Virus record (IMG/VR): IMGVR_UViG_3300045988_076685 | Location: 117,466-181,465 of that record | Length of the DNA stretch: 64,000 nt | Direction: 5' to 3' (one strand) | DNA from: a virus | Notes under the pieces: model-generated | The model's database searches: none | Seen by the model: only the letters and a program-made list of their open reading frames with translations | What the model was told of the DNA's origin: nothing | Position numbers and translations under genes: made by a program | In this document: positions 1 through 44,401 of the stretch, in pieces | Numbering within the stretch: position 1 is the stretch's first letter | How the letters are laid out: every line of letters starts with the position of its first letter

Positions 1-552
1 TCTAGGTTTTACTCTACAAATAGCATCTGCTAAAGCTTTACCTCCAGCATGAATGGCTTTTGGATTCCATTGACTAGGAGGTAATAAATCTAAATCCCCC
101 AACATCGGAGTATCGTGAGTTAAAATTATATCAGTATCTTCTGGAATATTATCATAATAACCTTTTAACCATTCTTCACTTTGCATAAATGACCAGTTAC
201 CGAACTTGTGGCAGAAAGGAGAGCCATATATTTTATAACATTTATAAGTTTCATATTCATAAGTAGTTCCTGACAAATATGTAAGTTTAAAATGAGTAGC
301 TCGCTCTAATGCATGAGCTATAAAAGAAGCTTGTTCTAAAAGTTTATCATGATTACCTGCAACCATAATTACATCTTCACAAGGAAGAGAGTTGATCCAT
401 TTTGTAAATGTATCTAAAAACCACAAAGTAGCTGCGGCATTATCAAATTGAATATTTAAAGGAACAATATCTCCTGCTATTAATACTAATTCACAAGGTT
501 CAATTTTTGGTAGATGACCATGTAAATCACTCAGTGCACAAATTTTTGTCAT
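1..552 (-). CDS. metallophosphoesterase (calcineurin-like), C-terminally truncated by window edge
   Basis: Minus-strand ORF starting at ATG 552..550 and running off the window; translation MTKICALSDLHGH...IAGDIV...VAGNHD carries metallophosphatase motifs I-III (DxH, GD, GNHD). Confidence 0.6.
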   Translation of the reverse strand, partial: MTKICALSDLHGHLPKIEPCELVLIAGDIVPLNIQFDNAAATLWFLDTFTKWINSLPCEDVIMVAGNHDKLLEQASFIAHALERATHFKLTYLSGTTYEYETYKCYKIYGSPFCHKFGNWSFMQSEEWLKGYYDNIPEDTDIILTHDTPMLGDLDLLPPSQWNPKAIHAGGKALADAICRVKPR

Positions 553-866
553 TATAATAAAGAATTTTTTATATCATTATATAAGTATTCATCATATTCA
601 CTTAATACTTCTGGATTTATTTCTTTTATAATAGGATATAGGATATACCAATAGTATTTAATATCTAAAATATCTATAAAAGCATTTATTTGTGCTCCGT
701 ATCGAGGGCAATTAAGTGAAAATAATTTATAAATACTGGGAAATCTTTGTCTATCTATTATCTGCCAATCTTCTATAAGAATTTTAGCTAATTTATGTAA
801 AGATATATTAGCATATATATAATTCCTAAGTATTGTGCCATTACTTCTGTTAGCTGTAGAACTCAT
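552..866 (-). CDS. hypothetical protein
   Basis: 104 aa ORF in the co-oriented gene train; stop overlaps the next start. Confidence 0.4.
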   Translation of the reverse strand: MSSTANRSNGTILRNYIYANISLHKLAKILIEDWQIIDRQRFPSIYKLFSLNCPRYGAQINAFIDILDIKYYWYILYPIIKEINPEVLSEYDEYLYNDIKNSLL

Positions 867-15591: not shown

Positions 15592-16600
15592 GCATACAAT
15601 AGAATGCTACTAATTTAAGAAGGTGAGTAAACTCTTTAAATCCTTTATTAAAAAGTTCTCTAGTCATAGGAACTACTTTAGTATTAAAATTTGGAATAGT
15701 TTCTACTACTAAGAAATTACTTCTAATTTTAGGATTTTCAATGTTATAATTCTTCTTAGCAGCCATAGTTAATAACCAACTATATAAAGCCATTTCTCTA
15801 TAATAGTGATAATCAATAAGAGCTCCTTTAGCAAAATTATTTATTAAATCTCCTGTGGTTTTTAAATCATTTACAGTGATTATTCCTTCTTCTTTATCTA
15901 TACTATAATTATCAAGTTTAGACTTAATTTTTAGTATAAAAGGTTTATGCCCTGGAGCCTCTACTAAAACATCTATAAGGAAAGCTATTTCATTACCAAT
16001 AATTGGCTGTTCTAGTAATCCTTCAGGATTTAGTAGAGATTGAATTTGTGTATCACTATTTAAAGCTTCTAAACATATTTTTAGTTTAGCGTGATTTTTA
16101 GGGTCTGTAAATATTGGTGTTCTAGTATCATTATTTTCCTCTTCAAAAGCTTTTCTATCACACCAATACTGAGCACAGTCTGCTAACACTTTTTCTATCT
16201 TTTTATCTGACATTTTATCTTTATAATAATCACACTTATCAGATGCTTCTAATATAATATCGTTAGTAACATTGATACCTTGTGTTTTCTTATAAATATA
16301 ATCTGCCATTGACCCCATTTTAGCAGTAGGTTTACTAACCTCTGTTAGAAAAAAGTCATTAGGTTGTAAAACTAAAGTATGTAACCAACTACCAAATTTT
16401 AAGCTAGCTGTATTTAATTTAGTCTTACCCCAATTATCAAAGAATTCTGTTGGAGAACCATCTTGATCTGGATTTATCTTAGATAATCTAGAGTTTGAGA
16501 TATAATTATTATACTTTTTTGAGAAATAAGTATCATCATCAATATCTTCAACTCTCAAAGTCTCTATCAGAGGTTTAATAGAAATTTGACTTAATTTCAC
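15554..16600 (-). CDS. hypothetical protein
   Basis: 348 aa ORF. Confidence 0.5.
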   Translation of the reverse strand: MKLSQISIKPLIETLRVEDIDDDTYFSKKYNNYISNSRLSKINPDQDGSPTEFFDNWGKTKLNTASLKFGSWLHTLVLQPNDFFLTEVSKPTAKMGSMADYIYKKTQGINVTNDIILEASDKCDYYKDKMSDKKIEKVLADCAQYWCDRKAFEEENNDTRTPIFTDPKNHAKLKICLEALNSDTQIQSLLNPEGLLEQPIIGNEIAFLIDVLVEAPGHKPFILKIKSKLDNYSIDKEEGIITVNDLKTTGDLINNFAKGALIDYHYYREMALYSWLLTMAAKKNYNIENPKIRSNFLVVETIPNFNTKVVPMTRELFNKGFKEFTHLLKLVAFYCMHGYEGFGITQET

Positions 16601-42992: not shown

Positions 42993-43850
42993 TTATTTTA
43001 TAGCTCTTAACTTTTTATACTCTTCAAATACTTTATCTTCAGCTTCTTTTCCCCACATAGTATATATCAGTACTCCATAAGGACAATATTGAAATATTAT
43101 TGGATCTACAGCATGAGAAACTATAACTTTCTTTTCTTGTAGATTTGATTTTGGACAAGCTATGAACATATCGTCTCTATGTACATAATGTACTTCTAAA
43201 TAGACTCTTTCAGCCCAGTCCTTATCCTTAAATTCATCTATATCACTCATACGATATAAATAAGCTGGATAAGAGATAATATTAAAACTATAATCAAAGT
43301 ATTCACAAATACTAGAATCACTTTTTTCACTGTGATTACGTATACGTTGGATTTCTACTGTATTATGGTTTGTATCTAATTTCACATAACCAGAGTAATG
43401 GTCCATTTTATACTTTATATCTGAAAACTCCTTTAAGTTAGCATCAGGTATAACTCCAGTAAACTGTTCAAGAAATCCTACAGATAATTTGTATTTATGA
43501 CAAAGTTTATAAAAAGAATCTCTACTAACTAATATAACAGAATCTCCCAAAAACTCATTCATAGTTTTTATGTAATTTAATAACTCACGAGCTTTTATGA
43601 TATTTCTATTATATGCATCAATATCACGTATTCTATCTTTTAAGAATTTAGCATTTGCACTATTACCTAATCCTAAATTACATAATCTGGCATATTCTCC
43701 AGACATATCATTAGACTTTAAAGGAATTAATGCTGTACCTTCTGAAACCCCTACTAAATCTACCGCTAACTTAGATAATTCTTTATCTATAGTTATTAAA
43801 GGTTTCTGTTCTTTTTTGGTTTCTTTTAAAAAATTACTAAAAATTCCCAT
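42993..43850 (-). CDS. hypothetical protein
   Basis: 285 aa ORF upstream of the AAA/flotillin pair. Confidence 0.5.
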   Translation of the reverse strand: MGIFSNFLKETKKEQKPLITIDKELSKLAVDLVGVSEGTALIPLKSNDMSGEYARLCNLGLGNSANAKFLKDRIRDIDAYNRNIIKARELLNYIKTMNEFLGDSVILVSRDSFYKLCHKYKLSVGFLEQFTGVIPDANLKEFSDIKYKMDHYSGYVKLDTNHNTVEIQRIRNHSEKSDSSICEYFDYSFNIISYPAYLYRMSDIDEFKDKDWAERVYLEVHYVHRDDMFIACPKSNLQEKKVIVSHAVDPIIFQYCPYGVLIYTMWGKEAEDKVFEEYKKLRAIK

Positions 43851-43940
43851 AATTAACAGTTAAAATTAAACAAAAATCCCTGAACTATAATAATAGTCCA
43901 GGGATTAAAAACAAATAATAAAAACAGTTCTATGAACTAG

Positions 43941-44272
43941 TGGAGATGAGGGGAGTCGAACCCCTGTCACTCCGATTTGCATCAAAACATTCTTACAGCA
44001 TAGGTTTTAAAGACTATCCTTGTCTGCTAGGGTTGACAAGATTAACATATTGTCAACTTCCACCACTCTGTTCCTAAAGTATACAGAGAACTTACAAAAG
44101 AAATGGAAAATAGTGCACCTTTCTGTTCACAAGCAAGTGCTGCTCGGCTTCTCAGGCAGCAGCCTGATAAGCAGGAGTCATATTAATAACTCTAGCGATT
44201 ATTGTTTTGTTGTCTCTCCAACTGTCTTGCTGTGTTCCTTATCTCCTCGAAGTTCAAAACCAAAACATCCCC
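43941..44272 (-). ncRNA. ssrA: tmRNA (ssrA), phage-encoded
   Basis: 5' end GGGGAUGUUUUGGUUUUGAACUUCGAGG matches conserved tmRNA 5' consensus. 3' end has T arm GGGGUUCGACUCCCC and acceptor strand CAUCUCC-A pairing with the 5' GGGGAUG. Internal frame AAUAAUC|GCU AGA GUU AUU AAU AUG ACU CCU GCU UAU CAG GCU GCU GCC UGA encodes tag ARVINMTPAYQAAA. Confidence 0.7.
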
Positions 44273-44401
44273 AATTTAAAAGAGTCCTAAGTTAGAACTC
44301 TTTTATGAATTAGTGTCTACCACGTAGATAATTGTAATTATCATACCAATCATCTGGATCTATTCTATATTCTTTATCCATAATTTAAAAATTAATTAAT
44401 G

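Follow-up and report, generated by a model that had tools for sequence, protein, structure and literature searches.

The 64,000-nt stretch of viral DNA analyzed here (positions 117,466 to 181,465 of the viral record IMGVR_UViG_3300045988_076685; hereafter the window) carries on its minus strand a one-piece transfer-messenger RNA (tmRNA) gene at 43941..44272, which measures 332 nt up to the discriminator A. ARAGORN called this tmRNA at 43940..44272 (-), with a coding part at 77-121 and the tag ARVINMTPAYQAAA followed by a stop codon; the Rfam family RF00023 matched 43938..44272 (-) end to end (model positions 1-374 of 374), scoring 66.1 bits, above the gathering score of 47, with an E-value of 1.5e-23. 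Because the two programs agree, and because the Rfam match is full length, we identify the gene as a tmRNA; a false positive of ARAGORN or Rfam was rejected. Read from 44272, the minus strand begins with GGGGAUGUUUUGGUUUUGAACUUCGAGG, and its 3' part comprises the T arm GGGGUUCGACUCCCC and then UCAUCUCC-A, whose last base lies at 43941; the terminus of the RNA reads ...GACAGGGGUUCGACUCCCCUCAUCUCCA. A preliminary description of this DNA had already proposed a tmRNA at the locus, and every sequence statement that it made holds, as does its expectation of a covariance-model match, which proved to be above threshold over the full length. Judged by its sequence, the locus quite probably holds a genuine phage-borne one-piece tmRNA (ssrA) gene that is complete, functional-looking, and of a phage-specific lineage.

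When IMG/VR was scanned with the tmRNA 3' end and with a pair of internal motifs, the RNA turned up in 35 viral contigs, which are 94-225 kb long and come almost entirely from one human-gut data set; a search of 50,697 GenBank phage records returned a single record with similar DNA, MT835492, which is an unannotated 'Bacteriophage sp.' from human faeces that is 86.6% identical across the gene. The RNA occupies a syntenic position in the IMG/VR contigs and in MT835492, and at least 36 related phage contigs carry it. Most family contigs also have flanking DNA in common with the window, at 80-95% identity; five of them (L003, L022, L028, L064, and L071) have the tmRNA alone in common with it, at 84-89% identity, from which we conclude that the RNA is better conserved than its surroundings. 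When the window tmRNA was compared by BLAST with 28 bacterial tmRNAs, similarity was confined to positions 1-19 and 305-332, namely the tRNA-like domain. Furthermore, the core 19-mer AGGAACAGAGTGGTGGAAG had zero matches when 185,579 bacterial and archaeal species, represented by a single genome apiece, were searched, and no donor lineage can be named for anything beyond the tRNA-like domain. By these sequence comparisons, the tmRNA belongs to a phage-specific lineage with members in 36 or more genomes of large gut phages.

The 3' end of ssrA serves many temperate phages as an integration site, and the gene might in principle be a host ssrA gene, or a fragment of one, acquired at a prophage attachment site. 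Indeed, its 24-nt 3' end is common to many bacterial tmRNAs and is also found at the ends of viral contigs, ~35 kb long, that resemble prophage junctions. However, the window gene is full-length, and both strands of its acceptor stem are present; a search of the window for its 22-nt 3' end, tolerating up to 3 mismatches, gave a single occurrence, and no att-like repeat accompanies it; and the window open reading frames (ORFs) scanned gave no Pfam match to an integrase. Moreover, the gene is syntenic in dozens of phage contigs of 94-225 kb, its core 19-mer is absent from all of the species genomes searched, and the bacterial tmRNAs compared resemble it in the tRNA-like domain only. The partial 3' segment, serving as attL or attR beside an integrase, that marks a prophage-junction remnant was thus not found, which in practice refutes this origin; we leave it hardly any probability, and the earlier view that the gene sits amid phage genes, and is not a junction fragment of host ssrA, stands.

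The two ends of the RNA form the tRNA-like domain. Its acceptor stem pairs the 5' strand GGGGAUG (RNA positions 1-7; 44266..44272 (-)) with the 3' strand CAUCUCC (positions 325-331; 43942..43948 (-)) at 7 of 7 positions, followed by the discriminator A at 43941; the 5' strand holds G3 of the G3:U70 pair, the alanine identity pair. The D-loop analogue UUUUGGUUUUGA (positions 8-19; 44254..44265 (-)) makes up, together with the acceptor 5' strand, a 19-mer that is identical in some Bacteroidales tmRNAs at their 5' end, and the T arm, which is evident from both the sequence and the Rfam alignment, comprises the stem AGGGG/CCCCU and a 7-nt T-loop, UUCGACU, of the UUCGAnU type (positions 308-324; 43949..43965 (-)). 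The long helix H2 includes H2a, in which ACUUCGA (positions 20-26; 44247..44253 (-)) pairs with UCGGAGU (positions 298-304; 43969..43975 (-)), as found by anchored extraction, by the minimum free energy (MFE) fold, and by pair counting. Helix H5 (positions 102-125; 44148..44171 (-)), with 9 of its 10 pairs formed in the window, encloses the last part of the tag frame, including its stop codon. At the position of the first pseudoknot, PK1, lies a hairpin with the stem GUUG/CAAC (positions 51-64; 44209..44222 (-)), which in the relatives reads GTTG/CAAC or ACTTG/CAAGT. Two further elements are candidate pseudoknots: PK2 (AGCA/UGCU and GCAC/GUGC; 44115..44144 (-)), which was drawn by hand and in which 99-100% of cells pair across 25 relatives, and PK3 (CUCUGU/ACAGAG and ACUU/AAGU; 44056..44088 (-)), which is invariant in the same number of relatives and overlaps the core 19-mer. 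Finally, a stem at the PK4 position (UGACAA/UUGUCA; 44034..44055 (-)) is predicted by the MFE fold, and one of its pairs changes from A-U to G-C in three relatives.

An unconstrained MFE fold regains the acceptor stem, the T arm, H2, and H5, with a modest z-score of -2.2 against shuffled sequences, 4 of 100 of which folded equally well. The relatives provide the stronger signal. Among 35 of them, the acceptor stem has three sequence variants, all of which pair at 7 of 7 positions (these pairs were counted by anchored extraction, the first ~10 columns of the MAFFT alignment being out of register between the three 5' types), and G3:U70 never varies. The T stem has four variants, all paired 5/5 and with double-sided changes at 4 of the 5 pairs; H2a has five, all paired 7/7 and with double-sided changes at 5 of the 7 pairs; and the hairpin at the PK1 position has two, both fully paired across the 35 relatives. 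In addition, the H2b pair 38:286 alternates between A-U and G-C. On 25 distinct sequences, 92.1% of cells were paired, as against 34-45% when the 3' partners were slid by 1-3 columns; 14 double-sided pair changes were observed, as against 1-2 in the slid controls; and the covariation score was 0.190, as against 0.02-0.05. The compensatory changes that back the acceptor stem, the T arm, H2, the PK1 hairpin, and H5 in these alignments indicate that the RNA structure is under selection.

The predicted tag reading frame (44152..44196 (-)) runs from the resume codon GCU (44196-44194), a non-AUG codon preceded by the A-rich context AAUAAUC, to the in-frame stop codon UGA (44154-44152), which follows GCC, and it encodes ARVINMTPAYQAAA, a tag of 14 codons. 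Since AAUAAUC|GCU of the window falls on the RF00023 consensus AAUAAuU|GCa, the prediction places resumption at the canonical codon. Three tag alleles, all of them in frame, occur in the family, namely ARVINMTPAYQAAA, ARVINMTPVSYAIAA, and GEVNNTS[A/V]SYAIAA; each ends in AA and is followed by UAA or UGA, and each can separately form H5, as judged by eye from the alignment. QAAA is the ending of one of these alleles, the two others ending in YAIAA. Because the related phages with YAIAA tags include all module combinations, we regard QAAA as a polymorphic allele and not as a fixed feature. The preliminary description had noted the QAAA ending, which is real, and had suggested that it could evade or redirect host proteolysis; evasion as an adaptation is weakened by the near-canonical YAIAA endings that sister phages carry on the same RNA.

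A related alternative is that the phage RNA acts as a competitor or re-director, which would take the place of the host tmRNA on SmpB and on ribosomes; rescued proteins would then carry a QAAA tag and be poorly degraded or rerouted, or host trans-translation would be blunted. The window tag allele is in fact the most divergent of the three from the GENNYALAA-type tags of Bacteroidota, and, as cited in a passage of PMC11915505, a tmRNA-like RNA of mycobacteriophage DS6A that lacks a coding sequence reportedly inhibits the cell's own tmRNA in E. coli. However, YAIAA tags, which are close to the canonical degron, occur in sister phages whose RNA is otherwise the same, in all tRNA-like-domain combinations, and QAAA is therefore not essential to the role of the RNA; moreover, the tag frame and its stop codon are conserved, unlike in a pure decoy. 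We consider a competitor role unlikely.

The family joins a near-invariant core to three main exchangeable tRNA-like domains. Type A, that of the window, reads GGGGAUG ... AGGGG-UUCGACU-CCCCU-CAUCUCCA; type B, found in L062-L083, L087, and L089, reads GGGGCAU ... UGGAG-UUCGACU-CUCCA-AUGCUCCA; and type C, found in L001, L066, L068, L072, L074, L080-L082, L084-L086, L088, and L090, reads GGGGCUA ... GACGG-GGCAGUA-CCGUC-UAGCUCCA. The T-loop of type C, GGCAGUA, is non-consensus, and its D-loop analogue has changed along with it to AACUAGUAUUUGA, with G3:U70 kept and the stems fully paired; the type C copy of L001 was missed by Rfam at the gathering threshold. Domain types and tag alleles occur together in almost every combination, which points to recombination within the phage population. 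A fourth T arm, GAGGG-UUCGAAU-CCCUC, unlike those of types A-C, occurs in L071 (6900-7359 (-)); the tmRNA of this contig also has an insertion of ~130 nt in the PK2/PK3 region.

Two relatives, L089 (9562-10761 (+)) and L064 (about 397-648 (-)), have a T-loop into which a group I intron (Rfam RF00028, 86-87 bits) is inserted, just behind nucleotide 2 of the loop. T-loop introns are known at four subsites, of which subsite 3 has been found only in the class Bacteroidia (PMC11915505), and subsite 3 is the position of the introns in L089 and L064. These two genes therefore resemble the intron-form tmRNA genes described in that work, whereas the window copy, with its uninterrupted T-loop, is intronless. 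The L089 intron is, at 867 nt, longer than those surveyed there, all of which are under 700 bp, and it contains an antisense ORF of 209 aa, for which a Pfam scan gave a sub-threshold zinc-finger match only and no homing-endonuclease match. Another group I intron (88 bits) lies at L028:9010-9294 (+), ~9 kb from the tmRNA of that contig.

Several observations weigh against reading the window gene as a functional tmRNA: (i) the same Rfam search gave 108-141 bits for other tmRNAs of IMG/VR viral contigs, a comparison drawn among viral contigs, as against 66 bits here; (ii) a second pseudoknot stem for PK1 was sought in the window RNA and its relatives and was not identified; (iii) PK2 and PK3 are invariant in the family, with no compensatory changes among the 25 relatives, which leaves covariation neutral on both; (iv) the CCA end is not fully encoded, the bases after the discriminator A being C-U-A; (v) the C-terminal AAA of the window tag is unlike LAA or IAA endings; (vi) SmpB was not found among the window ORFs scanned, so that dependence on host SmpB is assumed; (vii) a promoter scan of the flanks returned promoter-like sites no more commonly than in shuffled sequences, with none set to start at the tmRNA 5' end; and (viii) the function of the RNA is deduced from sequence throughout. 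A tmRNA that was acquired in the distant past and is now decaying without a function would fit the low Rfam score for a tmRNA (66 bits), the compactness of the RNA with a PK1 that is not clearly a pseudoknot, and the non-consensus T-loop (GGCAGUA) or insertions of some relatives. Against decay, however, compensatory changes keep every variable helix paired while G3:U70 stays invariant; all three tag alleles are in frame with a stop codon; the RNA is still 87-89% identical in phages whose flanks cannot be aligned; and the copies with an intron still have a group I core that scores highly, and are therefore presumably spliced. A pseudogene was accordingly considered and rejected, and we judge a relic very improbable.

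Compared with the one-piece bacterial tmRNA (RF00023, as in Bacteroidales), the phage RNA is alike in (i) an acceptor stem with G3:U70, the T arm, H2, and a stop codon within H5; (ii) an A-rich resume context with U-5 and A-4; and (iii) a 5' 19-mer identical to that of some Bacteroidales tmRNAs; in addition, the family allele GEVNNTSASYAIAA resembles the Bacteroidota tag GENNYALAA. It differs in being ~60 nt shorter (332 nt versus 370-413 nt), in a central ~285 nt without detectable similarity to the bacterial tmRNAs compared, in a tag of 14 residues versus 9-10 that ends in AAA, and in its location in a phage genome. The bacterial side of this comparison comes from a genome scan with the 5' pattern of the tRNA-like domain, which returned 28 real tmRNAs, nearly all from Bacteroidota, with lengths of 370-413 nt and tags of the GENNYALAA or GNNNYALAA type. 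The first 19 nt of the window RNA occur exactly in four bacterial tmRNAs (L100, L208, L117, and L172), which belong to two rumen Bacteroidales metagenome-assembled genomes and two short contigs binned as other taxa. Furthermore, a Shine-Dalgarno-like motif precedes only 12 of the 105 window ORFs. Because of this scarcity of Shine-Dalgarno motifs, the shared 5' 19-mer, the intron at subsite 3, and the GE...YAIAA allele resembling GENNYALAA, we take some member of the Bacteroidales to be the most likely host, an assignment that is deduced and not demonstrated.

Phage-encoded tmRNAs are documented already, and the preliminary description implied more novelty than the literature allows: a 2022 survey counted a tmRNA in 402 of 18,146 phage genomes (2.3%) and discussed possible roles (PMC9004378), both tmRNA and SmpB are on record from huge phages (PMC7162821), and three tmRNAs occur among the first 30 mycobacteriophage genomes (PMC1475703). 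The window gene resembles those reported from mycobacteriophages of cluster C, Streptomyces phages of cluster BE, huge phages, and marine myophages such as Melnitz in being a complete ssrA gene in a large, tRNA-rich phage with no integrase nearby, and the roles proposed are the same, namely upkeep of the hijacked translation machinery or protein tagging (PMC9004378, PMC7162821, PMC1475703). It differs in lineage, since only 1 of the 50,697 GenBank phage records matches at the DNA level; in being one-piece and not permuted; in that no riboswitch was found; in belonging to a lineage in which the stop codon TAG is recoded; and, unlike some huge phages, in the lack of SmpB among the window ORFs scanned. 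It is thus a new example of a documented kind and an incremental one, such RNAs having been catalogued for two decades. Four features of the tmRNA family, as distinct from the window copy, appear to be unreported in the literature searched: the compact phage-specific core, the modular polymorphism of domains and tags, the phage T-loop intron, and the association with TAG recoding. The family offers a well-supported case of a virus with its own ribosome-rescue RNA, in an uncultured lineage that is recurrent in human-gut viral catalogues. It also constitutes a natural allelic series within one phage population (tags with three different endings; tRNA-like domains of three main types, with a fourth type in a single contig; and a T-loop intron that is present or absent), which could be used to ask what a phage gains from trans-translation and how far host AlaRS and SmpB tolerate different tRNA-like domains.

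The immediate surroundings of the gene bear on its expression. A strong intrinsic terminator, with a 14-bp stem and a U-run, was found by a terminator scan at 43875..43906 (-), 35 nt downstream of the tmRNA 3' end. In the 3' trailer between them, a small hairpin, AGUUC-AUA-GAACU, followed by GUUUUU (43926..43938 (-)), was recognized by eye and is kept in sequence in most relatives. On the other side, a hairpin GAGUUC-UAACUUA-GGACUC followed by UUUU (44282..44300 (-)), also seen by eye and left unflagged by the terminator scan, ends 9 nt before the tmRNA 5' end. Because this upstream hairpin with its UUUU leaves no room for a promoter, the RNA is probably cut from a longer early transcript; phage tRNAs are often processed out of longer transcripts.

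Read as a functional tmRNA, the RNA would be transcribed with the same-strand, standard-code early/middle genes and the tRNA genes, its 5' end would be cut by RNase P, and its 3' end would be trimmed and its CCA completed by a host enzyme (no CCA-adding enzyme was found among the window ORFs scanned). It would then be charged with alanine by host AlaRS through G3:U70, and SmpB and EF-Tu of the host would bring it to ribosomes that have stalled on mRNAs that are broken or lack a stop codon. Such a ribosome would move to the tag frame, add (A)ARVINMTPAYQAAA, terminate at UGA, and be recycled, and the tagged chains would end in AARVINMTPAYQAAA. These steps (RNase P, CCA, AlaRS, SmpB, EF-Tu, and tagging) are modeled on established knowledge of trans-translation. 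The likely benefit to the phage is that translation capacity would be upheld, or extra rescue provided, while the mRNA of the host is broken down. The preliminary description had proposed that the RNA might rescue ribosomes on poorly terminated, AT-rich messages or during shut-off of the host, which would be plausible. A further contribution may come late in infection, when this lineage reassigns UAG.

The evidence for reassignment comes from the relatives. Beyond its overlap with the window, MT835492 has a strand, opposite to that of the early genes, without long standard-code ORFs; when TAG is read through, this late region yields ORFs of 637-3,401 codons, with 408 in-frame TAG in 10,935 codons. 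The TAG-recoded region lies in L211 (MT835492 48000-97999), from about locus position 15700 on the minus strand, and also in L212-L224. The 637-aa recoded ORF, with 21-24 in-frame TAG and no TAA or TGA, was found in 13 IMG/VR contigs, 9 of which are tmRNA-bearing family members; among the recoded members is 3300045988_089718, the closest relative of the window, with the same tag and 94% identity. A PHROG scan of two TAG-recoded late ORFs gave no informative match, and a CUA suppressor tRNA was not found in the window or in the family loci examined. The tmRNA thus appears to sit in the standard-code early/replication region of a lineage with TAG-recoded late genes, an arrangement extended to the window genome from its closest relatives.

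We also considered a more speculative proposal, which we hold to be rather doubtful, that the tmRNA is part of a code-switch toolkit of a TAG-recoded phage, made together with the tRNA set from the early region, and that the swapping of domains and tags, along with the intron, reflects conflict. If so, amber suppression would lead to readthrough of UAG-ended host and early messages to the mRNA ends, or to stalls at UAG while RF1 is outcompeted, and the phage tmRNA would clear such ribosomes. The stop codon of the tmRNA frame is always UAA or UGA and never UAG. An analogous case is recoded E. coli lacking RF1, in which tmRNA resolves ribosomes at unassigned UAG codons (PMC6207430); the literature searched held nothing relevant that links tmRNA to stop-codon-recoded phages. 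Under the same proposal, the exchange of domains and tags on a near-invariant core and the homing-type T-loop intron would record an ongoing conflict, for which tRNA-directed host nucleases, or intron endonucleases acting on the tmRNA, would be candidates.

The window as a whole has ~30% G+C and a steady negative GC skew, and it is densely coding, nearly all on the minus strand and in the standard code; its ORFs of at least 100 aa end in TAA (41), TGA (23), or TAG (8). Its proteins include an anaerobic ribonucleotide reductase (NrdD), NAMPT, a Dda-like helicase, a DNA ligase, a dUTPase, thioredoxin, a DnaB-like helicase, RNase H, a macro domain protein, an SPFH protein, an AAA ATPase, and YopX, and PHROG phage families are present, among them the widespread phage family phrog_1735. 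ARAGORN found 17 tRNA genes, and Rfam one more, read as tRNA-His; the total for the window is put at 18-19. This Rfam-only tRNA-His (GUG) lies at 63068-63139 (-), near an odd 84-nt ARAGORN 'tRNA-Tyr (AUA)' with weak stems at 63907-63990 (-). In the relatives, an ARAGORN 'tRNA-Stop (UUA)' and tRNA-like genes with irregular anticodon loops occur in L068 (7491-7576 (-)), L067 (11941-12013), and L078 (1170-1242).

A PHROG scan of the ORFs adjoining the tmRNA gave no informative match. Directly downstream of the tmRNA lies a 285-aa ORF (42993-43850 (-)) without a Pfam or PHROG match, which is absent, or merely 67-69% identical, in many otherwise syntenic relatives; the position beside the tmRNA is therefore a variable accessory slot. 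Elsewhere, in three unrelated viral contigs, Pistol ribozymes (58-61 bits; L010:4010-4077, L053:3260-3327, and L033:5030-5097) sit 2.2-2.3 kb from high-scoring tmRNA genes.

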